Source: an uncultured Bacteroidota bacterium
GTDB lineage: Bacteria > Bacteroidota > Bacteroidia > Bacteroidales > B18-G4
NCBI GenBank assembly: GCA_963793485.1
Contig: CAWCAB010000003.1
Location: 198,419-262,418 of the forward strand
Length of the DNA stretch: 64,000 nucleotides
Direction of reading: 5' to 3'
Positions 2,771 to 45,362 of the stretch are shown here, in pieces (within the stretch, counting starts at the first letter, position 1; each line of letters opens with the position of its first letter). The notes under the pieces are model-generated. The model was not told where the DNA came from, searched no databases, and saw nothing but the letters and a program-made list of their open reading frames with translations. A program made the position numbers and the translations under genes.

Positions 2771-2812
2771 GTGTGAGGTGTGGGGCCTGAGGCTTGGGGC
2801 CTGAGGTGAGTG
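2771..2812. repeat. G-rich heptamer tandem block (6 units)
   Basis: gtgtgag gtgtggg gcctgag gcttggg gcctgag gtgagtg read directly. Confidence 0.8.
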
Positions 2813-2830
2813 GCGCGTTTTCAGAAAGCT

Positions 2831-2865
2831 TCAAATATCAGATATCAGATGTCAAATATCAGATA
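2831..2865. repeat. Heptamer tandem block TCARATA (5 units) overlapping the stop of the MazG-like gene
   Basis: tcaaata tcagata tcagatg tcaaata tcagata. On the minus strand this is TGA every 7 nt. Confidence 0.85.
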
Positions 2866-3185
2866 TCCCTCTGCTTCCAAACCCTCTTCTTATTGATCTC
2901 TTCTTTCTTTCGAAAGGCTTCTTCCATATCGATACCGCTACGGTTGGCGATGGCGCATATGTATATGAGAATGTCAACCAGTTCTTCTCCAACATGAAAA
3001 GTCTCTGAATTATGATCAGTGCTGATGTTTTCAGCTTTCCGGATGGCTTTGAAGAGTTCCCCCATTTCTTCACCCATAAGGAGGCATTTTTCGAGGATGG
3101 TTTGACTGATGAAGCCTCTTTCATGTTCAAGTTCTGTGACATACGTTTGGAGGTTTGACAGCGTAGCTTCTGATAGTTCAGGCAT
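2859..3185 (-). CDS. MazG-type nucleoside triphosphate pyrophosphohydrolase (small all-alpha NTP-PPase)
   Basis: 108-aa ORF with the acidic helix motifs GEEMGEL and EELVDILIY, typical of the MazG/NTP-PPase fold. Confidence 0.75.
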   Translation of the reverse strand: MPELSEATLSNLQTYVTELEHERGFISQTILEKCLLMGEEMGELFKAIRKAENISTDHNSETFHVGEELVDILIYICAIANRSGIDMEEAFRKKEEINKKRVWKQRDI

Positions 3186-3228
3186 AAGGAATGGTTTTGT
3201 CCAAAATTATAAAAATCCAGACAACTCT

Positions 3229-3282
3229 AAATACTTCAAGTACTCTAAGTACTTTAAGTACTCCAGGCACTCCAAGTATTTT
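3229..3282. repeat. Nonamer tandem repeat AAGTACTYY (6 units)
   Basis: aaatacttc aagtactct aagtacttt aagtactcc aggcactcc aagtatttt. Abuts or overlaps the stop codon at 3281-3283. Confidence 0.85.
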
Positions 3283-4660
3283 AATGAATCACCTTCATCA
3301 CGGCCCTTTCCAACTCATCTCCCGGAGGAGGAGCGGGATATGCCGCGATATTTCCTTCGGTATTGATCAGAACATATAGCGGGAGGTTCCTGATATCATA
3401 GCTGTCAAGTACCGCGGGATCATTCCCGTAGTGTGCGAAGGTCCAATGGAATCCTCCTGAATTTGCCAGGGGGATATATGCTGCAGGGTCATCATCCATA
3501 GAAATGCTGATGATCTCCAGCCCTGACTTATAATAATTATAAAGTTCGGCGAGGCTTTCCAATGCGTTCTGAGTCCCTTTACTTTCACTCCTGTAAAATG
3601 CAAGCAGGATAGGTTTGCCTTTGATATTTCTGAGGTTAAAGGCCTGCCCTCCGATGCCAATCAGGATGATGTCCGGTGCTGGACTGCCGGGGGCGAGATG
3701 GTTCAGGCTTGTAAGCAGGTTTGCTGCAATACGCTTATGCATGGGGTCGTTTGTAGAAAGTTTGATGTCTTCTATCATAGCCAGTACCTGAGGTTTTTTG
3801 AAAGTCCCATTATAATACAGGCTCCGCAGGCCATGGATCAGTACCAGTTCCCTGAAACCCTCTTCCTGCAGATATGGTACTTTTTCGAGGGCACGCAAGA
3901 TCATTTGATTGCTGCTGCTGTCATTTACAGCAATGATCAGGTCTGAGATGGTGATCACATCCGGTGAGCTTGTCAGGAACTTTTCGAAAAACTCATCAAG
4001 AAAGAAGGTGTATTCAACATTATTATAGAGGACCGCTTTGCCAACGAAATATTCTTCAGCTAAGGCTCTTTTCCCTCTTAAGCGGGCGAACTGATAAACA
4101 TCGGCCAGCTTATAATGAATGTAATCAATAAAATAGGGATGATCAACGCCCTCAAAAGTTTGGTCAACCTGCTCGCGAAAATCAGTCACCCTGGCCTTAT
4201 CATGCAGCTTGACAATATGCTCAAAGTTTTCCATCACAAACTTATTGTACATGGCATTGAATTTCCAGATGAGTTGGTTGAGTTCATTTTCATCCTCTGT
4301 CTCTAAGCTATAATCCAGTCCTTGCCTGTCGAAATAAGATTCCAACTGGTTGGCCGGGTTATAGCTGATAATAAGTTGATAGGCATTTCCCGGCTCCAGA
4401 AAGATCTCGGCCCGCTGGTAATTGATATCGAGAAAAGCGGCGGTGGTTTCTTCCAGATCAAATTCAATTTTGAAGCTTCCGTCTTTGCTGACCGTGCTTT
4501 CACCCAGTTTTATTATCTTCTTTGAAATAAAATCATCAAAAGCCAGCAGCCTGACTACCTGCCTTTCGCCTTCTGATACCGTTCCGTGAATGCTGGTCTT
4601 CTGCGCAAAAATGGTGATGGGGAGGAATAAAAGTAGAAGGGCTATAGTATACTTTCTCAT
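3281..4660 (-). CDS. Secreted thioredoxin-fold (TlpA/AhpC-TSA-like) protein lacking the CxxC motif
   Basis: Signal peptide MRKYTIALLLLFLPITIFAQ from ATG 4660; the track start at 4681 is TTG. The C-terminal part (KGKPILLAFYRSESKGTQNALESLAELY...GLEIISISMDDD...LPLYVLINTEGNI) has a TlpA-like thioredoxin layout. Confidence 0.6.
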   Translation of the reverse strand: MRKYTIALLLLFLPITIFAQKTSIHGTVSEGERQVVRLLAFDDFISKKIIKLGESTVSKDGSFKIEFDLEETTAAFLDINYQRAEIFLEPGNAYQLIISYNPANQLESYFDRQGLDYSLETEDENELNQLIWKFNAMYNKFVMENFEHIVKLHDKARVTDFREQVDQTFEGVDHPYFIDYIHYKLADVYQFARLRGKRALAEEYFVGKAVLYNNVEYTFFLDEFFEKFLTSSPDVITISDLIIAVNDSSSNQMILRALEKVPYLQEEGFRELVLIHGLRSLYYNGTFKKPQVLAMIEDIKLSTNDPMHKRIAANLLTSLNHLAPGSPAPDIILIGIGGQAFNLRNIKGKPILLAFYRSESKGTQNALESLAELYNYYKSGLEIISISMDDDPAAYIPLANSGGFHWTFAHYGNDPAVLDSYDIRNLPLYVLINTEGNIAAYPAPPPGDELERAVMKVIH

Positions 4661-4740
4661 AGTAATGGATTTGGAAACCAAAGAATAAACGCCTCGAGAT
4701 AATCTTTATTATCGAAAAGATATTCTGGTAGTATTACTTA

Positions 4741-4827
4741 CCACCAAGACACCAAGGCACGAAGGTACACCAAGATCAGCATTTATAAACTCTTGGTGAT
4801 GCTTGGAGTCTTGGAGCCTTTGTGGTT
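4741..4827. repeat. Imperfect inverted pair of CACCAAGR / CTTGGNG short tandem units (8-9 bp)
   Basis: Left arm ccaccaagacaccaaggcacgaaggtacaccaaga. Right arm tcttggtgatgcttggagtcttggagcctttgtgg. Lies 7 nt downstream of the coaD stop. Confidence 0.7.
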
Positions 4828-4834
4828 CTTATTT

Positions 4835-5293
4835 TTAGAACTTCACTGCTTCTGGTACAAACTGGCTCGCATCACCTCCATTGCGGAGGATATCGCGGAC
4901 GATGGAGGAATTGATGGAAGTGTGCTCAGGGGCAGTAAGAAGGAATACGGTCTCAATATCCGGGTATAGTTTCTTATTCACCTGCCCAATACTGCGCTCA
5001 AATTCAAAGTCGGCAGAAGTACGCAATCCGCGCAGTATGAATTGGGCATTCACCTCTTTGCAGAAACCAACTGTCAGACCGGAATATTTTGCCACGCTCA
5101 CTTTAGCCTCATCAGCAAATACCTCCTCAATCCATTTCAGGCGCTGATCGATATCGAAATAGCTCTTCTTTTCAGCGTTTTCACCAATGGCAACAATGAT
5201 CTTATCAAAAACTTTGCATGCCCTTTTGATGATGGATTCGTGGCCAATCGTGATCGGATCGAATGATCCCGGGAAAACTGCTATTTTATTCAT
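4835..5293 (-). CDS. coaD: Phosphopantetheine adenylyltransferase
   Basis: N-terminus MNKIAVFPGSFDPITIGH (nucleotidyltransferase H/TxGH motif), 152 aa, full-length CoaD-like. Confidence 0.93.
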   Translation of the reverse strand: MNKIAVFPGSFDPITIGHESIIKRACKVFDKIIVAIGENAEKKSYFDIDQRLKWIEEVFADEAKVSVAKYSGLTVGFCKEVNAQFILRGLRTSADFEFERSIGQVNKKLYPDIETVFLLTAPEHTSINSSIVRDILRNGGDASQFVPEAVKF

Positions 5294-5313
5294 GATAGTA
5301 CTTTTTACTTAGA

Positions 5314-5418
5314 CTGATATACTTCGATTAAGCTTCTGATATCCGATATCTGATATCTGAAATTTGAACCTTTACGCCTTCCCCGTACCTCGTCCCGCGA
5401 ACCTCGTCCCACGTCAAA
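5314..5418. repeat. Mosaic heptamer array (15 units: TCTGATA block then CGTACCT/CGTCCCN block)
   Basis: tctgata tccgata tctgata tctgaaa ... ccttccc cgtacct cgtcccg cgaacct cgtccca cgtcaaa, all in one 7-bp phase. Confidence 0.85.
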
Positions 5419-5449: not shown

Positions 5450-6079
5450 TTAAGGCGTATCTATCGCTTTCACAAGTACTTCCGAAATGGATCGGAAAGT
5501 CTTATTGCTCTTCTTTTTGGCTTTATCAAAGGGAACCCACTTTACTTTCTCAATTCCTTCTGCCAGCGCGGGGATCATCACCTGATTGCGCTTGCCTTTC
5601 ATCAGGAACCAGTGGGTTTTCTTGATGATGAGTTTTTTGTTCCGGCGGTAAAAATGATACGTGACGGATAGCTTCTTGATAATTTCCAGCTTCTGCAGCC
5701 CGGTTTCTTCCATCACCTCTCTCAGTGCGGTTTCCTTATTCTTTTCTCCGCTGTTTTTCTTCCCCTTGGGAAGATCCCACCTGCCATGCCGGAAGATCAT
5801 CAAAACCTCATCTTTCTTGCTGATCACAGCTCCGCCGGCAGCTTTGGTAAGCTTAAACCTTCCTATAAAGAACTTAAACAATTGATCAACATTTTTTTTG
5901 CGGTACACGATCAGGGTTCTGATCTTTTTCGCCTTGATAAAGTGTTCAAATTCAACGATCAAATGCACCATTCCCTGATAACGGTAGAACACTGTATTCT
6001 TATCCTTGATGGAGAAACTCATATTCTCAGTGAAAATAATGAGCTTGTCTTTAATGAAAACTTTGAAGTTTTGATGCAT
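5450..6079 (-). CDS. NUDIX hydrolase
   Basis: Nudix box GKKNSGEKNKETALREVMEETGL. The start is taken at ATG 6079 (MHQNFKV); the track start at 6130 is TTG and reads through a perfect hairpin. Confidence 0.8.
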   Translation of the reverse strand: MHQNFKVFIKDKLIIFTENMSFSIKDKNTVFYRYQGMVHLIVEFEHFIKAKKIRTLIVYRKKNVDQLFKFFIGRFKLTKAAGGAVISKKDEVLMIFRHGRWDLPKGKKNSGEKNKETALREVMEETGLQKLEIIKKLSVTYHFYRRNKKLIIKKTHWFLMKGKRNQVMIPALAEGIEKVKWVPFDKAKKKSNKTFRSISEVLVKAIDTP

Positions 6080-6083
6080 AAGC

Positions 6084-6116
6084 CCGACCTCACAGGTCCC
6101 CGACCTGTGAGGTCGG
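6084..6116. other. Perfect 15-bp GC-rich hairpin (ccgacctcacaggtc ccc gacctgtgaggtcgg) 4 nt upstream of the Nudix ATG
   Basis: Arms are exact reverse complements. There is no flanking T-run. The 13-nt core recurs at 10726-10755. Confidence 0.85.
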
Positions 6117-6179: not shown

Positions 6180-6242
6180 TTCGAGGTATGCGGTTTGAGG
6201 TACGAGGTACGGGGGACAGGGTAGTTTTGAGTTTTAAGTTGA
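6180..6242. repeat. Heptamer array (9 units; G-rich block is the reverse complement of the 5377-5418 family)
   Basis: ttcgagg tatgcgg tttgagg tacgagg tacgggg gacaggg tagtttt gagtttt aagttga. Confidence 0.8.
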
Positions 6243-6526: not shown

Positions 6527-9187
6527 ATGAAAAGATCAGTTATATATATCGTATTGAGCCTTTTCATCCAATGTACCATATCAGCTCAATCTGATGGGTC
6601 CTGCCTGCCGGATGGAATTACATTTTCAACCCAGGCTGAAATTGACAGTTTCCAAACGAACTATCCCAATTGTACTGAGATAGAAGGGGATGTGGCGATA
6701 TCGGGAATTGATATTACAAATTTGAATGGATTAAATGTTTTGATTTCTATTGGGGAAGACCTGTTAATATATGAGAATGATTCCCTTTTAAGCCTGTCAG
6801 GCCTAGATAATATAATTTCCATTGGAGGACAACTCTTAATAGGTTATGAGGATTATAATAACACAAGCCTGACAAGTCTGACAGGCTTAGAAAACTTAAC
6901 ATCCATTGGTGGAGATCTTTGGATTTCACACAATGACCTTTTGACGAACCTTACAGGACTGGACAATGTGAATTCAGTTGGTGGAAATATAAATATTACC
7001 GGTAACAATTCCCTGACAAAACTCACCGGATTAGGAAGTATTACTTCTGTAAATGGAGACCTTGTTGTTTCATATTCTGATGCCCTTACGGGTTTATCTG
7101 GCCTTGAGAATATTACTTCTGTGGATGGAGATCTTATTATTTCTTATTCTGACGCTCTTACGGATTTATCTGGTCTGGAGAATATTACTTCTGTAGCAGG
7201 GAACTTTAAAATCATCTTCAACGGATCTTTAACAGGTCTTTCGGGCCTTCAAAATATAGCTTTTATTGGAGGAGGTTTGAGCATTAATTACAATGCAGTC
7301 CTGACGAGCCTGACAACTCTCAGCAATTTGAGTGTTATAGGTGAAGAGATTCATATTTCTGCGAATAGTTCACTTCCTAACCTGGATGGTCTTGAAAATA
7401 TTACTTCGATATCCGGAAACCTGACGGTGGCGTGGAATAATGCGCTTAAAAATTTAACCGGACTTGCCAATTTGAGCTCAATTGGAGGAAGTATTTCTTT
7501 GTGGGGGAACGATTCTTTAACTAATCTGTCAGGTCTGAATAAAGTATCCTCCATTGGTGAAAACTTAACCGTTTCAAATACTGCCCTGATTAGTATATCA
7601 GGCTTGGGCAATGTAAGCTCCATTGGGGGGGGGCTATATATTTCATATAACGATTCCCTGCTCAACTTAAGCGGTTTGGACAATATTGTTTCATTGGGTG
7701 GTAGCTTAGTATTTGGAGGCAACGCTTCCCTGACAAATATAACAGCACTGGGAAACTTAACTTCCATTGGTGGTATGTTATCAATTGGCTTTGAGGGTGA
7801 TCTAGATGAACTTCATGGAAACCCTGTAATGGCAAATTTATCAGGACTGGAAAATATTACTTTCATCGGTGAAAGTCTTCATGTTTTAGATAACAATATA
7901 CTCACCAGTTTATCGGAATTAAGTAACATTACCTCCATAAACGGCGGCCTTTGGGTTGGAGAAAACCTTATACTGACAAACCTGACTGGATTGGATAATG
8001 TTACTTCCATTGCGGGTTACTTTTCAGTTCATGGCAACACTTCCCTGACAAGTCTGACAGGACTTAACAATATTACTTCTATCGGGGGGAGCCTAACTAT
8101 TTATAGGAACGATAACCTGATAAATATGATGGGATTGAATAGTGTGGATTCCATTGGTGGGCAAATTTACATTTCTGAGAATAATTCTTTACAAAATCTG
8201 ACAGGCTTGGAAAATTTGAATTACATGTTAGGGGCCCTCTCAATAGCTCTCAACAATTCCTTAGTAAGTTTATCGGGTCTTGATAATCTAAATGCAGATT
8301 CAATAACAAATTTAACTATCAGATATAATAGTAATTTAACTACTTGTGAGATTCAAGGTCTCTGCGATTATTTTGAAATGCCAAATGGGGTTGTGAATAT
8401 CTATGGTAATGCAACAGGTTGCAACGATCCGTCTGAAATTGCAAGCGCTTGTGGGATTACGTTGACTTGTTTACCATTCGGCAACTACTATTTTTCCTCC
8501 CAGGCACATATCGACAATTTCACGTCTAACTATGGCAATTGCACAGAACTCAAAGGAGGTGTAACTATTTCAGGGAATGATATCACAAATCTTGACGGTT
8601 TAAATAATGTGAATAGCATAGAAGGAGCCTTTGGGATACATGGCAATCCAAGGTTGGCAAACCTGGAAGGTCTGAGTAATGTTGTTTCCGTTGGATATTA
8701 TCTTATTGTTGAAAACAATGATTCTTTGCTAAGCCTATCAGGCCTGGATAGTATTGAGGCAACTTCTATCTATTACTTATATATTGAAAATAATCCTTCT
8801 CTATCAAGCTGTGAAGTACAAAGTATATGTGATTTCCTGGTTGACCCAAATGGATATGTAGCCATTCAAGATAATGCTTTAGGTTGTAATAGCCAGGAAG
8901 AGGTTGAAAAAGCCTGTAGTCCAGTTTCTGTTGATGAATTCCATCTTGCAGACGAACTAATCATTTACCCCAATCCCTCCTCCAATCAGATCACCATTGA
9001 ATTACCCAACACACCAAAAAGGAATTCATTCCTATCCATTTATAATATTAGCTCTCAGCAATTGATTACACGTCAGATAACGGAACAAAAAACACTTGTG
9101 GATGTATCCGGCTTACCCACTGGTTTCTATTTTGTAAAAGTAGCGGATGACAGAACGGTGATGGTGGGTAAAGTGGTAAAGAAATAA
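6527..9187 (+). CDS. Secreted leucine-rich-repeat / receptor-L-domain-like beta-helix protein with T9SS C-terminal sorting domain
   Basis: Signal peptide MKRSVIYIVLSLFIQCTISAQ from ATG 6527. Contains about 30 repeats of the pattern LxxLxGLxNLTSIGGxLxIxxNxxL. The C-terminus (IIYPNPSSNQITIEL...GFYFVKVADDRTVMVGKVVKK) is a type-A T9SS CTD. Confidence 0.85.
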   Translation: MKRSVIYIVLSLFIQCTISAQSDGSCLPDGITFSTQAEIDSFQTNYPNCTEIEGDVAISGIDITNLNGLNVLISIGEDLLIYENDSLLSLSGLDNIISIGGQLLIGYEDYNNTSLTSLTGLENLTSIGGDLWISHNDLLTNLTGLDNVNSVGGNINITGNNSLTKLTGLGSITSVNGDLVVSYSDALTGLSGLENITSVDGDLIISYSDALTDLSGLENITSVAGNFKIIFNGSLTGLSGLQNIAFIGGGLSINYNAVLTSLTTLSNLSVIGEEIHISANSSLPNLDGLENITSISGNLTVAWNNALKNLTGLANLSSIGGSISLWGNDSLTNLSGLNKVSSIGENLTVSNTALISISGLGNVSSIGGGLYISYNDSLLNLSGLDNIVSLGGSLVFGGNASLTNITALGNLTSIGGMLSIGFEGDLDELHGNPVMANLSGLENITFIGESLHVLDNNILTSLSELSNITSINGGLWVGENLILTNLTGLDNVTSIAGYFSVHGNTSLTSLTGLNNITSIGGSLTIYRNDNLINMMGLNSVDSIGGQIYISENNSLQNLTGLENLNYMLGALSIALNNSLVSLSGLDNLNADSITNLTIRYNSNLTTCEIQGLCDYFEMPNGVVNIYGNATGCNDPSEIASACGITLTCLPFGNYYFSSQAHIDNFTSNYGNCTELKGGVTISGNDITNLDGLNNVNSIEGAFGIHGNPRLANLEGLSNVVSVGYYLIVENNDSLLSLSGLDSIEATSIYYLYIENNPSLSSCEVQSICDFLVDPNGYVAIQDNALGCNSQEEVEKACSPVSVDEFHLADELIIYPNPSSNQITIELPNTPKRNSFLSIYNISSQQLITRQITEQKTLVDVSGLPTGFYFVKVADDRTVMVGKVVKK

Positions 9188-10717: not shown

Positions 10718-10763
10718 AAAAAAAAGACCTCACAGGTCCGGGGACCTGTGAGGTCTTTTTTTT
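10718..10763 (+). terminator. Bidirectional-looking intrinsic terminator
   Basis: A8 - gacctcacaggtc cggg gacctgtgaggtc - T8, located 40 nt after the lipase stop. Confidence 0.85.
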
Positions 10764-11868: not shown

Positions 11869-11877
11869 AAAAAGTTT

Positions 11878-12037
11878 CTGGTCGCTGGCTTCTTGTTACT
11901 GGTAACCAGTAGCCAGCCCGCCATCGCCAAGGCTTCGGCGCATGAAGTATCCAGTATCCAGGATCTAGTATCCAGTATCCAGGATCTAGTATCTAGTATC
12001 CAGTATCCAGTGACAAGTAACAAGTAACCAGCAGCAG
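11878..12037. repeat. Heptamer array filling a convergent spacer (about 23 units; core TATCCAG/GATCTAG with a 21-bp super-repeat)
   Basis: ctggtcg ctggctt cttgtta ctggtaa ccagtag ccagccc ... tatccag tatccag gatctag tatccag tatccag gatctag tatctag tatccag tatccag tgacaag taacaag taaccag. Confidence 0.9.
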
Positions 12038-12041
12038 TATA

Positions 12042-12791: not shown

Positions 12792-12821
12792 CGTCTGTAA
12801 AGTTAGCATATAATGGTGATT

Positions 12822-12893
12822 CACCTCACCCCCTGGCCCCTTCTCCTTGAGGAGAGGGGGAAAAGGGGGACGGGGGGTTAAGGGGGTGAGGTG
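12822..12893. repeat. GC-rich nested palindromic element between divergent birA and rsfS
   Basis: Outer arms cacctcaccccct / agggggtgaggtg are exact complements. Inner arms are ccccttctcc ttga ggagaggggg. Confidence 0.8.
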
Positions 12894-12949
12894 CATAATT
12901 TGACTGAATTAACACCAATTTTCCGTACATTTGCAGCAAATTAGCATGC

Positions 12950-13345: not shown

Positions 13346-15460
13346 ATGGCAGATATAAAAAAAACAGATAAGGGGAAGAACCAATCGGGCCTCCCCAAGA
13401 TGAATAAAAAAGGCAAATTCAATTTCTATTGGATCTATGCCGCTATGTTTTTCATCATTTTCATTATATACATTTCAGATTTAGGTGGCGGTGCAAGGAA
13501 GACCAATGAATATGATCTTCGGATAATGCTTCAGAAGGGTGACGTTGAAAAAATCGACGTGATCAATAAGGAGAAGGCTGAGATATTTATCAAGAAAGAT
13601 GTCCTGGATAAGGATACAGCATATAATGATGTAAAACCATCCGGCTTTAGTCAGGGCGGACCTCAGTTTTACATGTATATTGATGGTGCTGATGAGTTTA
13701 AGACCTGGGTAGCTACAGCACAGGAGGGCTTTCCAGAAGCCGAAATGATTGTTCCTGAGCTGGATAACCGTACTAGCTGGATAGATAGCCTTAGCTGGCT
13801 GCTACCGATCCTCATCCTTGTGGTGATATGGATCGTGATCATGCGTATGATGGGACGTGGTGCCGGTGGAGGTGGGGGCCAGATATTTAACATCGGGAAG
13901 TCAAAGGCCCAGCTGTTCGATAAGAGCACAAGCGTAACCATAAACTTTAAAGACGTTGCCGGGCTGGAAGAGGCGAAGGTGGAGATTAAAGAAATTGTCG
14001 ACTTTCTGAAAAGCCCTGAGAAATACACTACCCTTGGCGGTAAGATACCTAAAGGTGCGCTGCTGGTAGGCCCTCCGGGAACCGGGAAAACACTATTGGC
14101 AAAGGCAGTTGCCGGTGAAGCAAAGGTGCCCTTTTTCAGCATTTCCGGATCAGATTTCGTGGAAATGTTTGTTGGTGTTGGCGCCTCCAGGGTGCGCGAC
14201 CTCTTCAAACAGGCCAAGGAAAAAGCTCCTTGTATCATCTTCATCGATGAGATTGATGCCATCGGCCGCGCCAGGGGAAAAAATGCCATGACCGGAGCCA
14301 ACGATGAACGTGAAAATACATTGAATCAGCTGCTCACTGAGATGGATGGCTTTTCAAGTAACACAGGTGTGATCATACTGGCAGCTACCAACCGGGCCGA
14401 CATTCTCGATCGTGCCCTGATGCGAGCAGGCCGTTTCGACAGGCAGATCCATGTTGAGCTTCCCGACCTGGAAGAGCGCAAAGCCATTTTTAAAGTGCAT
14501 ATGCGCCCGCTAAAAATGGATGATACAGTGAAGGTGGATTTTCTGGCAAAACAAACCCCCGGATTCTCGGGTGCCGATATAGCGAATGTGTGTAATGAAT
14601 CAGCGCTGATAGCGGCAAGAAATGGCCATAAAAGTGTTGAGAAGCAAGATTTTATGGATGCAATCGACAGGATCATTGGTGGCCTGGAGAAACGGAATAA
14701 GATCATCACTGCCAAAGAGAAAAAAGTCATTGCCTTTCATGAAGCCGGACATGCCTCAATCAGCTGGTTGCTCGAGCATGCACATCCACTGGTGAAGGTA
14801 ACTATCGTACCCCGCGGCAAAGCACTTGGTGCTGCGTGGTACCTGCCGGAAGAACGACAGATCACAACCTGGGAACAGATGTTTGATGAGATGACAGCCA
14901 CCCTTGGCGGACGTGCTTCGGAAGAAGTGATCTTCGGGAAAGTCTCCACAGGGGCTCTCAACGACCTGGAACGTGTAACCAAGCAGGCTTATAATATGGT
15001 TGTGTATTTCGGTTTGAATGAGAAGATCGGAAACATCAGTTATTATGATTCATCAGGTCAGCAGGAGTATTCATTTCATAAGCCTTATAGTGAAAAAACT
15101 GCCGAAACAATAGATGCTGAGATCAAGGTACTTGTAGAGAAAGCCTATAAGCGTGCTGTTGAACTCCTGAAAGAAAACAGAGAAGAACTTGAAGCACTGG
15201 CGACAAGGTTGCTCGATAAGGAAGTCATCTTTAGTGAGGACCTTGAAGAGGTATTCGGTGCCCGCCCATGGGATGAAGAGAAAAGGCCAGGAGAGAATGG
15301 GGACGGGGAACTTTTACCGAAGACCGAAGATCGAACAGATGAGGCCGGCGAAAAGCCTTCAACTAACAGCGATCAGCCAACAGCCAACAGCGACAAGAAA
15401 CCAGAAGAGAAATCTGACGATCTTATCCCTGACAAACCTGAAGATAAAGAGAAGAAATAA
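13346..15460 (+). CDS. ftsH: ATP-dependent zinc metalloprotease FtsH
   Basis: Walker A GPPGTGKT, Walker [12 protein letters not shown] region, zinc site HEAGHA. Has an acidic low-complexity C-terminal tail. Confidence 0.97.
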
Positions 15461-15466
15461 TCTACA

Positions 15467-16111
15467 ATGGACGATACTACTTCCAGAGAGAAAGTCCTGA
15501 AAAGTGTCAGGAATGCCTTGATGTCGAAACTCGATAATCCATACCAGGATGTTGACTTCGACTCGCCTGTATTTGAGCAGGTGAGCGATTCTCCGGAGAT
15601 CGTATTTGCCCAGGAGTTTATTAAAACTGCTGGAAAGTTTGTGTATTGCAGCGATGATAAAGAATTTGCAGAAACACTTGGATCGCTTATAACCCAGAAT
15701 CAATGGAAATCTGTTCATTGTCTGGATAAGGGATTGAGTGACTTACTATCCGGGGAAAGCATCATGGTAACAAATGATGAAAAAAGCTTTGCCAATATGA
15801 AAGCGGGCCTCACACCTTGTGAATACCTTATTGCAAGGCTTGGGAGCATCATGGTTTCCACTGCACATGCTTCAGGGCGAAGGATGAATGTGTTTCCTGA
15901 GATTCACCTGGTTTATGCAAAAGCATCACAACTGGTGCCAGATCTGAAAGATGCCCTGAAAGCTCTAAAAGAAAAGTACGGGCAGGATCTTCCGTCTATG
16001 ATTAATCTCATCACAGGTCCAAGCCGGACTGCCGACATTGAAAAAACACTGGTTATGGGTGCACATGGCCCAAAGGAAGTATATGTTTTCCTTGTTGATG
16101 ACCAAATTTAA
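15467..16111 (+). CDS. LUD domain (LutC/YkgG-like) protein
   Basis: The C-terminal ITGPSRTADIEKTLVMGAHGP pattern is typical of the LUD domain. Confidence 0.75.
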   Translation: MDDTTSREKVLKSVRNALMSKLDNPYQDVDFDSPVFEQVSDSPEIVFAQEFIKTAGKFVYCSDDKEFAETLGSLITQNQWKSVHCLDKGLSDLLSGESIMVTNDEKSFANMKAGLTPCEYLIARLGSIMVSTAHASGRRMNVFPEIHLVYAKASQLVPDLKDALKALKEKYGQDLPSMINLITGPSRTADIEKTLVMGAHGPKEVYVFLVDDQI

Positions 16112-16126
16112 ACCAAAACCCGGATT

Positions 16127-16948
16127 TTGAAGAACCTCATTGTCAGAACAATTACAGGCGGATTTTTTGTGGCATCCATCATCTTCAGTGCGATATATTC
16201 ACCGGCTGTGTTCTCCATACTCTTCCTTATGATGGCTCTTGTCGGGCTGTGGGAATTCCAACGTCTTGCTATTGATTGGGTGGGAAAGTTAAAATCCAGT
16301 CCCGGCATAATTGCAGGCGGCATCATTTACATCCTCTTTCCACTGTATTCCAGACATGAATACCCTGTAGAGATTTTTCTTGCTATTTTCCCGGTACTGA
16401 TCATGCTTACCGTTTACCATGCGTTATGGGAGGGCAATCTTCGAAAAACATATATAATAGGAAATCTGGCAGGTATATTTTTCGTAGTGATCCCAATGGG
16501 GATGCTCAATCTCTATCTGAACCCAACTGCAATTCCAGGTTTTCATACTCCCTGGCTCGTACTGGGTATGTTTGCGATCTTATGGACGCATGATACATTT
16601 GCTTACCTGACAGGAAGCATGTTTGGAAAACATGCATTGTATAAACGTATTTCCCCTAAGAAATCCTGGGAGGGAAGCATTGGAGGCTTTGGCTTCTCAA
16701 TCGTTGCTGCCTATATTATCTCCGTGTTTTCCCCCTTACTTCTCATGTACCAATGGATGAGCTTTGCCCTGGTGATTACGGTCTTTGGTACCATTGGTGA
16801 CCTGGCTGAATCATGGTTAAAGAGGAGGGCAGGAGTGAAGGATTCCGGCAGCTTGTTGCCAGGCCATGGAGGCATCCTTGATCGTTTCGACAGCATTATG
16901 CTGGTTTCACCAATAATATTTCTCTTAATTCTTTTGTATCTGATATGA
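16127..16948 (+). CDS. cdsA: Phosphatidate cytidylyltransferase
   Basis: Signature SPKKSWEGSIGG...GDLAESWLKRRAGVKDSGSLLPGHGGILDRFDS. TTG start as given in the track. Confidence 0.9.
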   Translation: MKNLIVRTITGGFFVASIIFSAIYSPAVFSILFLMMALVGLWEFQRLAIDWVGKLKSSPGIIAGGIIYILFPLYSRHEYPVEIFLAIFPVLIMLTVYHALWEGNLRKTYIIGNLAGIFFVVIPMGMLNLYLNPTAIPGFHTPWLVLGMFAILWTHDTFAYLTGSMFGKHALYKRISPKKSWEGSIGGFGFSIVAAYIISVFSPLLLMYQWMSFALVITVFGTIGDLAESWLKRRAGVKDSGSLLPGHGGILDRFDSIMLVSPIIFLLILLYLI

Positions 16949-17604
16949 AATTCCATATAGCAGGCATAATACCCATTTTGGTTTTACTCACAGGAGTGCT
17001 ATTCATATTCTTCCTGTTGAACTGGTTTTTTCCGGAGCAGACCTTCATACATTATATATTGTATGTTGCTGGATTAATATTCATGTTCTTCGTGATCAGA
17101 TTCTTTCGTTTCCCTGTCAGACAGTCTACGCAGGATGAAAATAATGTTTACAGCGGGGCTGATGGCAAGGTGGTAGCCATTGAGAAGCTTCACATTGATG
17201 AACATTTCAATAGCGAACGTATCCAGGTCTCAGTCTTCATGTCGGTATTTAATGTGCATATCAACTGGAGCCCATTTGGGGGCAAAGTTGTTTATCGCAA
17301 ACATCACCAGGGAAAACATATGGTTGCTTTCAATCCTAAATCCTCCTTGATTAACGAGCATACGAGCTGGGTGATCAGGGATGAAAAGGGTAGGGAGGTG
17401 ATGATGCGCCAGATTGCAGGTGCCGTCGCCCGCCGGATCATCTGTAAGCCTAAGGTAGGGCAGGTAGTGCTTAAGGGTGAAATGATCGGTATGATAAAAT
17501 TTGGAAGCAGGGTTGACCTGATACTACCTCCTGACGCAGAGGTCATGGTAAACATAGGAGATAAAGCAAAGGGAACACAAACCCTGATCGCAAAGCTGAA
17601 GTAA
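16945..17604 (+). CDS. psd: Phosphatidylserine decarboxylase family protein (short type)
   Basis: Self-cleavage-type motif FGSRVDLILP. 4-nt overlap with cdsA. Confidence 0.85.
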   Translation: MKFHIAGIIPILVLLTGVLFIFFLLNWFFPEQTFIHYILYVAGLIFMFFVIRFFRFPVRQSTQDENNVYSGADGKVVAIEKLHIDEHFNSERIQVSVFMSVFNVHINWSPFGGKVVYRKHHQGKHMVAFNPKSSLINEHTSWVIRDEKGREVMMRQIAGAVARRIICKPKVGQVVLKGEMIGMIKFGSRVDLILPPDAEVMVNIGDKAKGTQTLIAKLK

Positions 17605-17607
17605 TTC

Positions 17608-18303
17608 TTAGAATATATCTATAAGTTCATTCAAGCTTCTGATTTCATACGTCACTTTTTCCTTATGCACTTTGCCTTCTGGATTGAAGAAAACCTGGTC
17701 CATCCCTACATTGCGTGCACCAAGAACATCCACCTCTAAATCATCACCAATAATAATGCTTTCTGCTGCCATGCATCCGGCTTTCTCCATGGCAAAGTGA
17801 AAAATTTCCGGTTCGGGTTTCTTGATCCCGGCTTCCTCAGAAGTGGTTACAGTCTTAAAAAACCTGTCTAAACCGGCAATGTTAAATTTCTGCTCCTGCA
17901 CCTCCTGAAACCCATTTGTGATCAGGTGTAAAGGATATTTGGGGGCGAGATATTCAAGGCTTTCTATGGCACAAGGGAAAAGGAAAGCCTTATCGGGGTT
18001 TACGATCACATAATCTTTTGACATGCCAACGGCAATCTGCTGATTAGTAATACCAAAGTCGGCCAGTGTCATCTCAAAACGTTTGACGTTTAGCACCTCT
18101 TTGAGAATATCTCCCTTGCGGTACCAACTCCATAGAAGGTCATTATGCTTCTCATATTGCTTCCTGAAAACCTCCAGGGAGGGAACACCAAGGTCATCCA
18201 ATCCATATTTTGAAAACATCCTCTGAAAAGAATCATTAGCACTGGCATCAAAATCCCAGATCGTTCGGTCGAGGTCGAAGAAGATGGTGGTGTATTTATG
18301 CAT
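17608..18303 (-). CDS. HAD-IA family hydrolase (YjjG-like nucleotidase)
   Basis: Motif I IFFDLDRTIWDF and C-terminal IIIGDDLEVDVLGARNVGM. Confidence 0.75.
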   Translation of the reverse strand: MHKYTTIFFDLDRTIWDFDASANDSFQRMFSKYGLDDLGVPSLEVFRKQYEKHNDLLWSWYRKGDILKEVLNVKRFEMTLADFGITNQQIAVGMSKDYVIVNPDKAFLFPCAIESLEYLAPKYPLHLITNGFQEVQEQKFNIAGLDRFFKTVTTSEEAGIKKPEPEIFHFAMEKAGCMAAESIIIGDDLEVDVLGARNVGMDQVFFNPEGKVHKEKVTYEIRSLNELIDIF

Positions 18304-18352
18304 GGGTGCAAAGGTAAATAATTAAACCTTGAACCATTACTTGATAGTGTTT

Positions 18353-18389
18353 ATGGGGACTTGGGGCTAGGGGCTAGGTTCTGGGGACC
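18353..18389. repeat. G-rich heptamer block (5 units) abutting the stop of the four-helix-bundle gene
   Basis: atgggga cttgggg ctagggg ctaggtt ctgggga. Confidence 0.8.
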
Positions 18390-18748: not shown

Positions 18749-18796
18749 TCCTATTAATACCAATATTCCTAAAATGTCACACCTGCGCACATTATT

Positions 18797-18831
18797 TCCT
18801 TGCCCCTAGTCCCCAGCTCCAAGCACCCTTA
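18797..18831. repeat. C-rich heptamer block (5 units), inverted relative to 18353-18389
   Basis: tccttgc ccctagt ccccagc tccaagc accctta. Confidence 0.75.
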
Positions 18832-18865
18832 TCGATCCTTTCGCATAAAAAAAATCAATCAAATC

Positions 18866-18897: not shown

Positions 18898-18939
18898 TGA
18901 TATCAAAATAATATCAAAAAACTATTAATATAAATCTAA

Positions 18940-33505: not shown

Positions 33506-33536
33506 AAAAAAAACCTCAGCAGAAGCTGAGGTTTTT
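33506..33536 (-). terminator. Intrinsic terminator of the cyd operon
   Basis: A8 - cctcagc agaa gctgagg - T5. On the minus strand the stem is followed by T8. Confidence 0.8.
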
Positions 33537-33543
33537 GATATTC

Positions 33544-33585
33544 TATACTCGTTATTCGATACTCGTTACTCGATATTCGGCACTC
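33544..33585. repeat. Heptamer block (6 units, 14-bp super-period)
   Basis: tatactc gttattc gatactc gttactc gatattc ggcactc. Confidence 0.8.
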
Positions 33586-36495: not shown

Positions 36496-36499
36496 AGTG

Positions 36500-37704: not shown

Positions 37705-37982
37705 GATTAAGGGGTTTGTTTAGTGTGAAACAAATTTAATAAATATATACTGAAAAAGCTACCGAAAATTATTAACCGCCATTTATAAATTACCCTACCC
37801 CTGCACATCCTCCATACTTGAAAGGGGGAGAGGTGCTTCTGATTGAAGGATATGCTGGAAAGTGGCCTGTGGTGGTTGAGATCTTCACAGAAAAGGGAAG
37901 GATCTTTTGGAAGCTGGTAAAGGAGTAGTCACCAGAGCTCCCTCGCCTCTGCTAGGGATGACAGAATAGGTGAGAAAAGCAA

Positions 37983-38035
37983 AAGAAGGGCGCGGCGCAT
38001 AACTATGTTAATCATGGGAGCGCCGCACCCTTCTT
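37983..38035. other. Long GC-rich hairpin (15 of 16 bp paired, 21-nt loop) in a roughly 600-bp non-coding divergent region
   Basis: aagaagggcgcggcgc ... gcgccgcacccttctt. On the minus strand it is followed by ttgcttttctc. Confidence 0.7.
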
Positions 38036-38049
38036 TCTAACAATTTCAA

Positions 38050-38091
38050 AACCTGTAACCAACCCAACACTCAACATTCAACACTCAACAC
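38050..38091. repeat. Heptamer block TCAACAC (6 units)
   Basis: aacctgt aaccaac ccaacac tcaacat tcaacac tcaacac. Confidence 0.8.
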
Positions 38092-40690: not shown

Positions 40691-40795
40691 AATGGCATAA
40701 GGCATAGGGAATAAGGCATAAGGAAAATGGAATGGACATGTGAAATGCAAATGCTAAATGATAAAAGCTAAATGCTCAATGATATATGAATATGG
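40691..40795. repeat. Heptamer array (15 units) filling the coxI-coxIII spacer
   Basis: aatggca taaggca tagggaa taaggca taaggaa aatggaa tggacat gtgaaat gcaaatg ctaaatg ataaaag ctaaatg ctcaatg atatatg aatatgg. Confidence 0.9.
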
Positions 40796-42657: not shown

Positions 42658-43513
42658 GGGCGGAACCCTTACTGCCATCATTGAACTTTCAAAGATCAGG
42701 ATTACTATTGCCGTGACCCTGAGCACCCTTACAGGATATATTTTATTTGACGGTACCGTCGACATGATTGCCGTATGGGCATCACTTGGTGTGTTCTTGT
42801 TAGCTTCTTCATCAGCGGCGCTGAACCAGTACCAGGAACGTAATATCGATGCCATGATGACACGCACAGCAAGGCGACCTCTTCCTGCAGGAAAAATTAG
42901 CGTTTCCCTGGCTCTTATTGTCGTTGTGTTATTGTTCCTGGCGGGAAGTAGTATTCTTTTCTATAAGACAAATAATATTGCTCTGGGCCTGGGACTGCTT
43001 TCATTTGTCTGGTACAATGCCATCTATACGCCATTAAAATACAAAACCGTTTTTGCGCTGATCATCGGTTCTGTGATCGGCGCCCTGCCGCCCATTATTG
43101 GTTGGACAGCTGCCGGGGGCGATGTCTTTGGTACACCAGTATTGTTTCTTGCCTTCTTTATCTATATCTGGCAGGTTCCTCATTTTATTGTACTTCTGCT
43201 GTTGTATGGCGACGATTACAAAGAAGCTGACCTTCCGGTCTTAACCTCATACTATGACGAGTACAGCACGCGTAAGATCATTTTTGTCTGGATATTAGGT
43301 ACCATGATCACCGGAATGATGCTGCCCTTTATGTGTGGCATGCAGTATTGGCTATCCATCATATTGATGATGTTGCTTTCCGCCGGCCTCTTTGTTTCCA
43401 TGATCAGGCTCATTATTAGAAACAGGCCTTTCCACGTAAAACGGGCGTTTATTTTGATGAATGTGTACCTGGTGCTGATCCTCATACTTATTTCCATTGA
43501 TAAACTGGTCTGA
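42638..43513 (+). CDS. ctaB: Protohaem IX farnesyltransferase (haem O synthase)
   Basis: UbiA-family pattern NQYQERNIDAMMTRTARRPLPAGKIS, multi-TM. The start is uncertain; it overlaps the coxII end. Confidence 0.88.
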   Translation: MQAQRSRGGTLTAIIELSKIRITIAVTLSTLTGYILFDGTVDMIAVWASLGVFLLASSSAALNQYQERNIDAMMTRTARRPLPAGKISVSLALIVVVLLFLAGSSILFYKTNNIALGLGLLSFVWYNAIYTPLKYKTVFALIIGSVIGALPPIIGWTAAGGDVFGTPVLFLAFFIYIWQVPHFIVLLLLYGDDYKEADLPVLTSYYDEYSTRKIIFVWILGTMITGMMLPFMCGMQYWLSIILMMLLSAGLFVSMIRLIIRNRPFHVKRAFILMNVYLVLILILISIDKLV

Positions 43514-43713
43514 GGCGTGGGGTTTGGGGCGTGGGATGATGTTGAGTGATTAATTCTTGGTGAAACTTTGTGCCTTGGTGTCTTGGTGGCTGTTTTGATG
43601 ATTAATTATGGATTATGAGCTATGGATGAAATGGAACAAGGAATATGGAAAATGTAGAATGGGCAATGTAATAACCCCGTTCCTCGTCCCCCGTCCCCCA
43701 TCCCTCGCACCAA
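43511..43713. repeat. Mosaic heptamer array (about 29 units in 5 blocks) beginning with the ctaB stop codon
   Basis: tgaggcg tggggtt tggggcg tgggatg | atgttga gtgatta attcttg gtgaaac tttgtgc | cttggtg tcttggt ggctgtt | ttgatga ttaatta tggatta tgagcta tggatga aatggaa caaggaa tatggaa aatgtag aatgggc aatgtaa | taacccc gttcctc gtccccc gtccccc atccctc gcaccaa. Confidence 0.9.
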
Positions 43714-43747
43714 ATTAAATAAAGCCGTATCTTAGTAAAAAATACCC

Positions 43748-44515
43748 ATGATGAACTCAAATTTTGCTGTACTGATCGATGGCGATAACATCCCATCTGC
43801 CTATGTGAAGGAGATGATGGAAGAAATTGCCAAGTATGGAAACCCGACCATCAAGAGAATTTATGGTGACTGGACCAAGCCAACACTTGCAAAGTGGAAA
43901 AACATGCTGCTCGAGAACGCTATCACCCCTGTACAGCAATATGCTTACACAAAGGGGAAGAATGCCACGGATTCGGCCATGATCATAGATGCCATGGACA
44001 TTCTCTACTCCGGGAAGGTGGATGGATTTTGCATTGTCTCCAGCGACAGCGATTTCACCCGCCTTGCCACCAGATTGCGTGAAGCCGGAATGCAGGTAAT
44101 CGGCATAGGGGAGAAGAAAACTCCCAGCCCATTTATCGTGGCCTGCGATAAGTTCATTTATATCGAAATCCTTAAAACCCAATCCAAAAGTGATGAAGTG
44201 AATACCGATGAAAGTAAAGCGCAGGTTGAAGAAACCTACGACAAGATCACTCCCCAGGTGATCAGACTTATTTCATCAACCATATCTGACCTGGCCGATG
44301 AGGATGGCTGGGCCTTTCTGGGTGATGTGGGAAGCTTGCTGCAAAAGAAAATGCCCAGCTTCGACTCCAGAAATTATGGTTTTCAGAAGCTGACACCCCT
44401 GATCAACTCCACCAATCGTTTTGAAATTGAACAACGCGAAAGCCCCGGGAAGAAATATAAGCTGATCTATGTTAAGAACAGGGAACAACATCAGAAGAAG
44501 GATAAAAAACACTAA
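43748..44515 (+). CDS. NYN (LabA/DUF88-like) nuclease-fold domain protein with C-terminal OST-HTH/LOTUS domain
   Basis: N-terminal FAVLIDGDNIP...DSAMIIDAMDILYSGKVDGFCIVSSDSDFTRLATRLREAGMQVIGIG (NYN). C-terminal LADEDGWAFLGDVGSLLQKKMPSFDSRNYGFQKLTPLI (LOTUS-like). Confidence 0.8.
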   Translation: MMNSNFAVLIDGDNIPSAYVKEMMEEIAKYGNPTIKRIYGDWTKPTLAKWKNMLLENAITPVQQYAYTKGKNATDSAMIIDAMDILYSGKVDGFCIVSSDSDFTRLATRLREAGMQVIGIGEKKTPSPFIVACDKFIYIEILKTQSKSDEVNTDESKAQVEETYDKITPQVIRLISSTISDLADEDGWAFLGDVGSLLQKKMPSFDSRNYGFQKLTPLINSTNRFEIEQRESPGKKYKLIYVKNREQHQKKDKKH

Positions 44516-44520
44516 TTAAG

Positions 44521-44646
44521 TGTTGGGTGCTAGGTGCTGGGTGCTGGGTGCTGGGTGTCTGAGGATTTAATCTTGGTGAAACTTGGTTCCTTTGTGCCTT
44601 GGTGGTTGCTTTGATTAATGATGAAAATGGAGAATGGTTATTGAAT
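44521..44646. repeat. Mosaic heptamer array (18 units) with the same block order as 43511-43671
   Basis: tgttggg tgctagg tgctggg tgctggg tgctggg tgtctga ggattta atcttgg tgaaact tggttcc tttgtgc cttggtg gttgctt tgattaa tgatgaa aatggag aatggtt attgaat. Confidence 0.9.
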
Positions 44647-44742
44647 TTCTGCGTTCCATCTACTGCCTTTTTTTCTTAACTTTAATGCACGAATAAACTT
44701 TCACTGAATAGAGATACTTATGATTAATATTTCTGTGCAATT

Positions 44743-45273
44743 TTGGTATTTATATTCTCCTTAGGGGTAAGCCAGAGCCAAATCATTCCACCTTCATCCG
44801 ATGATCTTTCGGTTGTTTACTTTGTCAGGTTCTCTGGGGTAGGGTCAATGGTTAATTTTAGCTTTTATGATAGTACAAAGTTTATTGGAAAGATAAAAGG
44901 TGGGAAGTATATCCGGTATGAATGCCAAGCTGGAAAGCATCTTTTTCTGGCAAGGAGTGAAAATGATGATTTTCTTGAGGCAGAATTATCAGCGGGAAAA
45001 ATTTATTTTGTTGATGCCTACGGAGAAATGGGAGGTGTGAAAGCACGGGTACTTTTGGAAGCTGTGGATACTAAAAATCAAAAATGGATAAAAAAGATCC
45101 TCAAACTAATCAATAAAAAACCTGCTGTAGAATTCACGGCCGAAGAATTGTCTGAAGAAGAAGCAAAACAGAAGCAAAAAGCGAAAAAAGCATTTCAACG
45201 ATACCATGAAAAAAAGAAGGAGGGGAAAGAATTCCCTCAAATCACACCTGATATGTTTTACCTGCCAGATTAA
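44743..45273 (+). CDS. Hypothetical protein (DUF2846-like pattern), no ATG start
   Basis: VVYFVRFSGVGSMVNFSFYDSTKFIGKIKGGKYIRYECQAGKHLF...SAGKIYFVDAY followed by a Lys/Glu-rich tail. Only a TTG start is available in frame. Confidence 0.45.
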   Translation: MVFIFSLGVSQSQIIPPSSDDLSVVYFVRFSGVGSMVNFSFYDSTKFIGKIKGGKYIRYECQAGKHLFLARSENDDFLEAELSAGKIYFVDAYGEMGGVKARVLLEAVDTKNQKWIKKILKLINKKPAVEFTAEELSEEEAKQKQKAKKAFQRYHEKKKEGKEFPQITPDMFYLPD

Positions 45274-45362
45274 TGTAGCTAATAGCCAACAGCCTCCAGC
45301 TCCCAGCAATCAGCTCCCGACCAACAGCCCCAGACCTCACACCCCAGACCCCGTGCCCAGCT
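45272..45362. repeat. Heptamer array NNNNCAG (13 units) spanning a convergent spacer and the last 8 codons of the cytochrome c gene
   Basis: aatgtag ctaatag ccaacag cctccag ctcccag caatcag ctcccga ccaacag ccccaga cctcaca ccccaga ccccgtg cccagct. Confidence 0.9.

Follow-up and report, generated by a model that had tools for sequence, protein, structure and literature searches.

Tandem arrays of 7-bp units fill many spacers in a 64-kb stretch of DNA from the metagenome-assembled genome (MAG) of an uncultured Bacteroidales. This stretch, hereafter the window, is all that was seen of the genome. As judged from their sequences, the arrays belong to the known phenomenon of heptanucleotide repeats, i.e. 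short tandemly repeated repetitive (STRR) sequences or long simple-sequence repeats (LSSRs), here in a Bacteroidales lineage. They are probably STRR-type arrays made by slippage, which fill unconstrained spacer DNA. A G/C-rich, inverted subset differs from the rest, and a cassette around an S23p gene (18353-18831) resembles the intervening sequences (IVSs) of 23S rRNA.

Seven-nucleotide periodicity of the spacers and its known counterparts

A crude gene map, made from the longest non-overlapping open reading frames (ORFs), divided the window into 5.6 kb of intergenic and 58 kb of coding DNA. The lag-k autocorrelation of both was compared with 200 dinucleotide-preserving shuffles. Intergenic DNA showed a strong excess at lags 7, 14 and 21 (z = 14.0, 8.1 and 4.4), whereas coding DNA showed multiples of 3 only and a depletion at lag 7 (z = -3.3). 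Arrays were searched with Tandem Repeats Finder and a lag-k array detector (lags 4-13). Lag-7 arrays were far denser between genes (16 arrays, 574 bp) than inside them (5 arrays, 116 bp), and three of the five coding arrays were located at the extreme 3' ends of genes. At each lag from 4 to 13 other than 7, the intergenic DNA of the window held zero to four arrays.

A sequence-only reading of the window had named 18 intervals with such repeats. Sixteen of them peak at lag 7 (shuffle p <= 0.003), and most of the named spacers gave arrays of period 7 (or 14/21) in Tandem Repeats Finder. The exceptions are a 9-mer array at 3229-3282 and an inverted pair of 8-mer arrays at 4741-4827, which the same reading had set apart correctly as 8-9-bp variants. 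Interval 12822-12893 peaks at lag 8 and contains a G/C hairpin. Altogether, arrays were found in 18 spacers of the window, tandem, convergent and, in five cases, divergent (start to start). The proposed recurrence of unit families is borne out as well: 18 unit pairs differ by one mismatch at most, compared to 7.0 ± 2.6 expected for random heptamers. The exact 20-nt inverted match between 4741-4760 and 43570-43589 is present, and extends to 35 nt at 91%.

Assembly or sequencing artefacts can be dismissed almost entirely as the source of the arrays. Tandem repeats are prone to mis-assembly, and length differences between L096-L103 (numbers L001-L108 designate loci fetched from other genomes and compared with the window) could reflect repeat collapse. 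However, the arrays are shorter than one read. An independent Logan assembly (L089) equals window 15389-19699 at 99.98% with zero indels, and these 4.3 kb include two arrays. Furthermore, arrays of this type recur in many independently assembled MAGs, some on contigs of 598 kb and 835 kb, as well as in finished plasmids of cyanobacteria. An Rfam search of the window at gathering thresholds gave zero matches, rRNA included, and the arrays match no family catalogued there.

Heptanucleotide repeats are the commonest LSSRs in prokaryotes, and STRRs have been used as fingerprinting targets since 1990. In that year, Mazel et al. reportedly described STRR sequences from Calothrix PCC 7601, with units CCCCA(A/G)T, TT(G/T)GTCA and CAACAGT; heptanucleotide LSSRs are said to have been treated by Mrázek et al. 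in 2007. The likeness to the STRRs of heterocystous cyanobacteria, proposed by the sequence-only reading, holds in every anatomical respect. Both are tandem, head-to-tail 7-nt units, with several unit families per genome, intergenic and dispersed, kept in position and variable in length and sequence. The differences lie in the host, an uncultured Bacteroidales and not a heterocystous cyanobacterium, and in the units, most of which are unrelated to STRR1-3 and follow each other in series within one spacer. Among 28 blocks, one contains an exact STRR unit (18353) and three a unit with one mismatch, while TTGGTCA is matched by none; by our estimate, chance alone would give about 1.5 near matches. 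The exact one, GGGGACT at 18353-18389, is the complement of the STRR1 unit CCCCAGT, and two blocks are one mismatch away from CAACAGT.

The heptamers GGGAATC of Xanthomonas and GGGGA(C/T)T of Nostoc are about 90% intergenic, lie much nearer the upstream ORF end than the next start, and are few between divergent genes. Their position is conserved while length and sequence vary between related species, for which slippage was proposed, and inverted pairs occur in Xanthomonas (Rehm et al. 2015, PMC4692102). The window arrays share the intergenic location, the proximity to the upstream ORF end, the kept position with variable arrays and the inverted pairs. Instead of one dominant G-rich unit with G-quadruplex (G4) potential, the window has many units, mostly without G4 motifs, and it has more arrays in divergent spacers. 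The sole canonical G4 motif inside arrays, with at least four G3+ runs and short loops, is at 12856-12886.

The sequence-only reading knew of no such system in Bacteroidota, yet one has been described. Intergenic TAACTGA repeats occur in Beggiatoaceae, cyanobacteria and five Bacteroidetes, accompanied by “other heptamer direct repeats”, in Gramella and Aequorivita within the same spacers (MacGregor 2015, PMC4679880). Both systems consist of intergenic heptamer direct repeats, and both have relatives without arrays at the same junction. The TAACTGA system, though, has one unit, mostly right upstream of starts and in forward orientation, whereas the window units are diverse and mostly stop-proximal. 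None of them has the TAACTGA consensus; TCAGATA/TCTGATA comes nearest, with one mismatch.

Turnover and position of the arrays

Comparison with relatives shows that the arrays change by whole-unit indels and by wholesale unit replacement, within conserved flanks. The nearest genomes are uncultured MAGs labelled Bacteroidales/Lentimicrobiaceae, the best being L001 (CoxI 88% identical). Between the window and L081/L082, where the neighbouring protein is 92% identical, flanks are about 95% identical. The indels inside arrays, compared with L081, measure 7, 7 (split by the aligner into 1+6) and 19 nt. The steps of 7 nt fit the slippage origin suggested by the sequence-only reading. The Trx-MazG spacer, which contains the 9-mer array, cannot be aligned at the same 92% protein identity, though it is equal in length. 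In L084 (69% identity), block order and a GATATC-type unit are kept at the NUDIX-CoaD junction, and L083 has other units.

Ordinary promoter spacers of the window can be aligned base by base with those of L001. The arrays upstream of SCO1 occupy one position in the two genomes and are built from unrelated units. The coxI-coxIII junction spans 95 nt in the window and 66 nt in L001 (GAACATG/GAAATGT units), with one related block (AAATGNN) and one replaced. In most other relatives this junction is 10-25 nt long and repeat-free, and the array has therefore invaded this operon junction within the sub-lineage of the window. The CyoE-NYN spacer is 234 nt long in the window and 95 nt, array-free, in L086. 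Its last ~25 nt are conserved between the two, and about 200 nt of arrays are wedged between the stop and this preserved start-proximal segment.

Adjacent spacers resemble each other in direct (p = 0.011) as well as in inverted (p = 0.022) orientation, which suggests that arrays spread locally rather than by a designed layout. Their distribution is patchy. In the pooled set of relatives (86 loci, 1.4 Mb, fetched via CoxI), lag 7 is the commonest intergenic period (80 arrays, compared to 11-48 at other lags). However, 45 of the 86 loci have no arrays, and few of 80 related loci (L001, L064, L013, L017 and L062) show a clear lag-7 excess. The arrays are therefore a lineage-sporadic trait on top of a general heptamer bias. 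Per kb of intergenic DNA, the window has 2.8 arrays and the pooled relatives 0.58 (~5×). At least about 15 unrelated unit types occur within the 64 kb, and each array-bearing relative has other types of its own, often several in series.

The sequence-only reading had counted 14 gene ends within 0-9 nt of an array. Our recount puts 11 stops and a single start in that range, and a further stop 10 nt away. In tandem spacers of the window, the array is nearer to the stop than to the start in seven of nine cases. The median distance of arrays is about 40 nt to starts and 0 nt to stops. Some arrays overrun the stop codon into the C-terminal coding end. In the pooled loci the stop preference is weak (30 vs 22 arrays, median 10 vs 43 nt) and not significant. 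Given this and the five divergent spacers, a maintenance at gene 3' ends is not supported as a rule. The motif TAnnTTTG is the Bacteroidota -7 motif, and exact TAnnTTTG boxes lie mostly between array and start codon. The arrays occupy only the signal-free part of the spacer, which extends from the upstream stop or terminator up to the 20-180 nt near the promoter of the following gene, which are conserved. The stop-hugging is best read as their exclusion from this conserved promoter-proximal DNA.

The genes around the arrays are ordinary. They include SecA, MazG-like, thioredoxin (Trx)-like, CoaD-like and NUDIX proteins, two proteins with tails of the type IX secretion system (T9SS), whose sorting domains are present, BirA, RsfS, FtsH, a cox operon, CyoE and NYN-LOTUS. 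The arrays and the cassette gene are listed by window position, with the strand where it applies.

2767-2806: G-rich heptamers (consensus TGAGGCG) that separate the MazG stop from the TAnnTTTG box of SecA (2745).
2825-2867: TCAGATA array running over the stop of MazG (2859-2861); it repeats 5335-5373 in inverted form (87% complementary over 39 nt).
3224-3282: 9-mer array ACTCCAAGT, immediately next to the Trx-like gene at its stop; missing in L082 (92% identity), where the spacer is equally long.
4741-4827: a pair of inverted 8-mer arrays, CACCAAGN / CTTGGTGN, that folds into a hairpin of 29 pairs 3' of the CoaD-like gene; kept in L081 and L084 with little covariation, and belonging to a dispersed ~59-nt element.
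5335-5373: TCTGATA array, with one unit more in L081; a GATATC-type unit is still present in L084.
5377-5418: C-rich block CGTCCCT, paired in inverted orientation with 6180-6221 on the other side of the NUDIX gene; 7-nt and 19-nt indels compared with L081.
6180-6242: G-rich TACGAGG block followed by an AGTTTTG block, upstream of NUDIX in a divergent spacer.
11878-12037: composite of CTGGTTG-type units, AGTATCC ×9 and AGTAACA, filling the spacer between two convergent stops.
12822-12893: C-rich/G-rich inverted pair forming a hairpin, in the divergent BirA|RsfS spacer.
15316-15391 (+): heptamer blocks (ACCGAAG, AACAGCC) within the last ~140 nt of the FtsH coding sequence; heptamer and 21-nt periodicity extends over 15316-15397.
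18353-18389: cassette arm 3' of the four-helix-bundle gene, G-rich on the plus strand and C-rich in the sense of the gene.
18389-18748 (-): gene of a four-helix-bundle / 23S-rRNA-IVS protein, 119 aa; true start ATG at 18748.
18797-18831: second cassette arm, upstream of the gene, with the box GTGTGACATTTT…GTATTAATAG between arm and ATG.
22952-23014: two blocks, first G-rich and then C-rich, inverted to each other and without an ORF inside.
28310-28344: weak block of G-rich heptamers, next to the canonical terminator hairpin at 28280-28299.
29045-29094: TTATTCA / TTCTTA array over the stop codon of gene 29080-29784.
33538-33585: TACTCGT array adjoining a bidirectional terminator hairpin (33509-33536).
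38050-38091: CAACACT array, 5' of the conserved promoter region of SCO1/cox; in L001 this position is taken by CCGGTNN arrays.
40691-40789 (+): GGCATAA block followed by an AAATGCT block, occupying the entire coxI-coxIII junction.
43511-43713: G-rich block, CTTGGTG element, AATGGAA block and C-rich block, from the CyoE stop to the conserved NYN-proximal 25 nt.
44520-44646: GTGCTGG ×5, CTTGGTG element and AATGGAT block, a direct copy of the 43511-43670 architecture.
45272-45362: C-rich blocks (CAGCTAA and CCCCGAC types) across two convergent stops, encoding a C-terminal extension of cytochrome c.

Because heptamer blocks lie inside its last ~140 coding nt, the C-terminal tail of FtsH seems to be built from an array. 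The cytochrome c of the window ends in …KIRKLGTGSGV* (45337-45362), that of L001 in …KIYKAG* and that of L086 in …KIRKAGSN*; the extra residues are encoded by the C-rich array, and the relatives end earlier. On either side of NYN, the spacers repeat a single composite in direct orientation (alignment score 32). A dispersed element of ~59 nt, built on CTTGGTGN octamers, has three copies in the window (4784-4842, 43548-43606 and 44564-44622). Among 103 fetched loci its exact core was found in L081 and L082 only, hence confined to this clade.

Further observations concern the same spacers and their neighbours. A different Bacteroidia MAG (L010, 11543-11740) has its own coxI-coxIII spacer of ~190 nt, with GACAAAG/GACAAGG-type heptamers, apparently an independent invasion of the same operon junction. 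The region between CyoE and cytochrome c (43514-45336 of the window) varies in gene content among relatives, with a spacer of 20 nt in L001, NYN alone in L086, and NYN plus a DUF2846-like gene in the window. An array-bounded mobile cassette carrying NYN-LOTUS was considered and rejected, as conservation of the protein across Bacteroidota is ~80%, and L086 encodes it in the same position, free of arrays. The NUDIX and S23p genes were rejected as recent insertions, both being syntenic in relatives. The 345-nt non-coding stretch upstream of the CAACACT array (37705-38050) ends in a GC-rich hairpin, GAAGGGCGCGGCGC…GCGCCGCACCCTTC, and could represent a decayed gene or a small RNA that escaped annotation. 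In an array-free spacer, a perfect 22-bp palindrome at 10718-10763 (AAAAAAAAGACCTCACAGGTCC / GGACCTGTGAGGTCTTTTTTTT), part of which recurs at 6068-6099, looks like a textbook bidirectional terminator. The 72-nt (24-aa) coding repeats of the T9SS-tailed leucine-rich-repeat gene (6776-8232) are the ordinary periodicity of such proteins, unrelated to the heptamers.

Inverted arms around S23p genes

G-rich and C-rich blocks alternate along the window (11 of 13 transitions, p = 0.011), and each G/C-rich pair forms a stem of 19-27 bp in minimum free energy (MFE) and centroid folds. The inverted arrangement seen by the sequence-only reading thus stands for the G/C-rich family, without a general excess of folding. 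Three inverted pairs contain no ORF (12822/12860, 22952/22998 and 43511/43675); others enclose NUDIX, DUF2846 or gene 18389-18748. Pairs around NUDIX and around CoaD-Trx-MazG (ranks 3 and 8 of 528) were tried as brackets of transcription units and rejected, since their complementarity is lost in L083 and L084. Brackets of ordinary genes were rejected also because neighbouring spacers are alike in direct orientation too. The bracket idea was therefore not generalised, and is limited to the S23p cassette.

The gene at 18389-18748 matches PF05635 (E = 3.4e-28) and TIGR02436 (95 bits, cutoff 24). The cassette consists of a G-rich array, a promoter-like box, this four-helix-bundle (S23p) gene and a C-rich array. 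It lies between HAD-hydrolase and Band_7 genes, syntenic in the window, L090, L092 and L093, and each of the four genomes has a G-rich array upstream of the gene and a complementary C-rich array downstream. The arm units differ between genomes and match within them (GGGGACT/AGCCCCT, GGGTGCA/TGCACCC and GGGTGCT/CAGCACC). The comparison shows that the arms stay complementary while their unit differs by genome. They are retained at 69-72% protein identity, where other arrays get replaced. In silico, the two arrays of the cassette form 25 pairs with each other in the MFE structure, and 22 in that of the centroid. The inverted-alignment scores of the arms are 13-31, compared to shuffle maxima of 11-15, in the window, L090, L092, L062, L094 and L096, with L093 borderline; in direct orientation, the scores of the cassette arms equal background.

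In Bacteroidia S23p genes, the upstream array is followed, ahead of the ATG, by a box of the form GTGTGACAwTTT…(12-20 nt)…GTATTAATAG (window 18749-18796, minus strand; L090 2930-3000; L092 2910-3000; L093 430-514; L094 2430-2500). Its conservation upstream of the gene gives it a promoter-like character. Alignment with the relatives also shows the segment between the arms flipped in one of them, with the arms in place. In L092, gene and box are turned relative to both neighbours, the G-rich arm still facing HAD and the C-rich arm Band_7. This would be the expected product of recombination between inverted arms.

Across independent S23p contexts, inverted arrays with scores above all shuffles occur in seven of nine, direct arrays in one and a one-sided array in one. 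S23p genes with inverted arms were also found in L062, in L094 (next to EpsH) and in L096-L103 (between lexA and imuB). A tblastn search for plasmids with S23p gave cyanobacterial matches only. Inverted arms are present on a Nostoc edaphicum plasmid (TAGGGAG ×8 / TCCCTAC ×5), in Nostoc ATCC 53789 and on Stanieria plasmids. Two Nostoc plasmids contain 14 and 8 lag-7 arrays per 50 kb, with the gene-flanking ones among the strongest. Both ends of their S23p genes are 2-34 nt from an array, and the surroundings also contain inverted pairs of the same unit without an ORF. When all loci, part of them fetched for this gene, were scanned, every inverted period-7 bracket around an ORF of at least 60 aa enclosed a PF05635 gene. 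No other bracketed gene type was found in the 1.4 Mb fetched for CoxI. In the literature searched, whose coverage was incomplete, we found no link between free-standing S23p genes and heptamer arrays.

The IVS of Coxiella 23S rRNA has terminal inverted repeats forming a 28-bp stem and, upstream of S23p, tandem heptamers of strain-variable number, with an RNase III cut at the first repeat (PMC4990558). The window cassette is similar to the IVSs of Leptospira and Coxiella in that an S23p ORF is enclosed by inverted repeats with a long stem, and in having tandem heptamers upstream of the gene. Unlike these, it does not lie in 23S rRNA (helix 25 or 45), but between HAD-hydrolase and Band_7 genes. 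It further differs in having its own promoter-like box and in having both arms made of heptamers.

In other genomes, S23p genes are wedged in operons (L105, which is Nostoc edaphicum pNe_5, L106, L107 and L096). Their neighbours are RNR alpha|beta (on the opposite strand), toxin-secretion genes, cas6|cas4 and lexA|imuB. Such a placement inside other operons appears typical of selfish insertion. At 3626-4330 of L096/L098, between imuB and dnaE2, a GxxExxY gene (TIGR04256, PDDEXK_3) has inverted flanks as well, CACCACAGAGGCACGGAGG… upstream and …CTCTGTGTCTCTGTGGTG downstream. The GxxExxY family has been reported from rRNA intervening sequences too.

Origin and meaning of the arrays

The mechanism with the best support is that slippage fills unconstrained spacer DNA. 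The arrays would arise and resize by replication slippage on 7-nt registers, and would spread locally via recombination or template switching. Most single arrays probably have no function of their own, and their proximity to stop codons would be a by-product of where they are tolerated. The arms of the S23p cassette may recombine with each other at the DNA level and, if transcribed through, would form an RNase III substrate, as in a true IVS.

Several observations weigh against this reading. Metagenome scans found no strain-level length polymorphism of this organism (L084 equals L085, and L089 equals the window). Neither L083 nor L084 keeps the brackets around NUDIX and CoaD-MazG, and AT-rich arrays have no partners, except for the inverted TCAGATA/TCTGATA pair (2825-2867 / 5335-5373). 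The Pseudanabaena S23p gene has long direct arrays and that of Calothrix an array on one side only. In L096-L103 the upstream array measures 77, 278 or 292 nt depending on the sample, to which short-read collapse may contribute. Because the promoter-like box is situated between the upstream arm and the ATG, this arm may lie outside the gene's own mRNA. Moreover, the co-variation of the arms can be explained by gene conversion between inverted repeats, without selection for an RNA stem. Finally, the stems are in silico folds of putative transcripts.

The sequence-only reading had also proposed functional RNA 3'-end elements, such as terminators, 3' stabilisers or translational insulators, kept at gene ends. 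We regard this as improbable. It would account for the 11 stop codons within 0-9 nt of an array, for three array spacers that fold well (4682-4834, 11869-12041 and 12800-12949), and for the hairpin 3' of CoaD being kept in L081 and L084. However, about half of the 18 array spacers fold no better than shuffles, and they are no more structured than 10 array-free ones, which fold better on average (median z -0.85 vs -1.6). Canonical hairpin-plus-T terminators sit beside the arrays and are not formed by them, as seen at 28280-28299 and 33509-33536. In addition, arrays occur in divergent spacers and inside an operon junction, their strand composition relative to the upstream gene is mixed, their sequences are unconserved between relatives, and the pooled stop preference is not significant. 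A C-rich bias of the Rho-utilisation type 3' of genes was discarded, the orientation of G- and C-rich blocks to the upstream gene being mixed. Binding sites of a sequence-specific protein or RNA-binding regulator, such as were suggested for the TAACTGA repeats 5' of Beggiatoaceae start codons, or G-quadruplex elements, such as were suggested for GGGNATC/GGGGAYT repeats, would fit the relatedness of the units (18 vs 7.0 pairs), the single mismatch between TCAGATA/TCTGATA and TAACTGA, and the existence of a G-rich family. The many unrelated unit types, different in each relative, and the position of the arrays away from starts make such sites very improbable. A G-quadruplex role was rejected as well, canonical motifs being nearly absent, with a single one within arrays.

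All arrays, inverted pairs included, could also be purely neutral DNA made by slippage and local duplication, into which S23p genes merely insert, or in which they survive, as in any repeat-rich spacer. The fast unit turnover, with the unalignable Trx-MazG spacer as an example, the similarity of neighbouring spacers in both orientations, the unconserved NUDIX and CoaD-MazG brackets, the S23p gene with direct arrays and the lack of a general excess of folding energy all agree with this. We nevertheless consider it rather unlikely. Inverted arms flank the gene in seven of nine independent contexts, with direct scores at background, and remain at protein identities at which other arrays have been replaced. 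The Nostoc plasmids have 8-14 arrays per 50 kb, yet each gene end has one within 2-34 nt. The characterised Coxiella IVS, furthermore, has the same design. Slippage-made filler, with the inverted G/C-rich subset set apart, thus remains our preferred reading.

A bolder extension of it is that much of the classic heptamer arrays, i.e. STRRs, the Xanthomonas pairs and the G/C-rich pairs described here, are arms or orphaned arms of IVS-like S23p cassettes. Such cassettes, carrying the S23p gene in their full form, would insert between or inside operons, as at the RNR subunit genes, cas6|cas4 and lexA|imuB. They would be excised from the host transcript by RNase III, invertible through recombination of the arms, and resized by slippage, with ORF-less pairs and solo arrays as their decay products. 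We put this forward tentatively, and it may well prove wrong.

Relatives of graded divergence let the dynamics of heptamer arrays be read, from unit-step indels and unit replacement to the invasion of operon junctions and the extension of coding ends. The inverted G/C-rich subset, with its tie to S23p across phyla, is the part worth following. S23p genes with inverted heptamer flanks in Bacteroidales, in other phyla and on cyanobacterial plasmids lead to a testable model of an IVS-like cassette, which would address two old puzzles, the heptamer repeats and the S23p genes.

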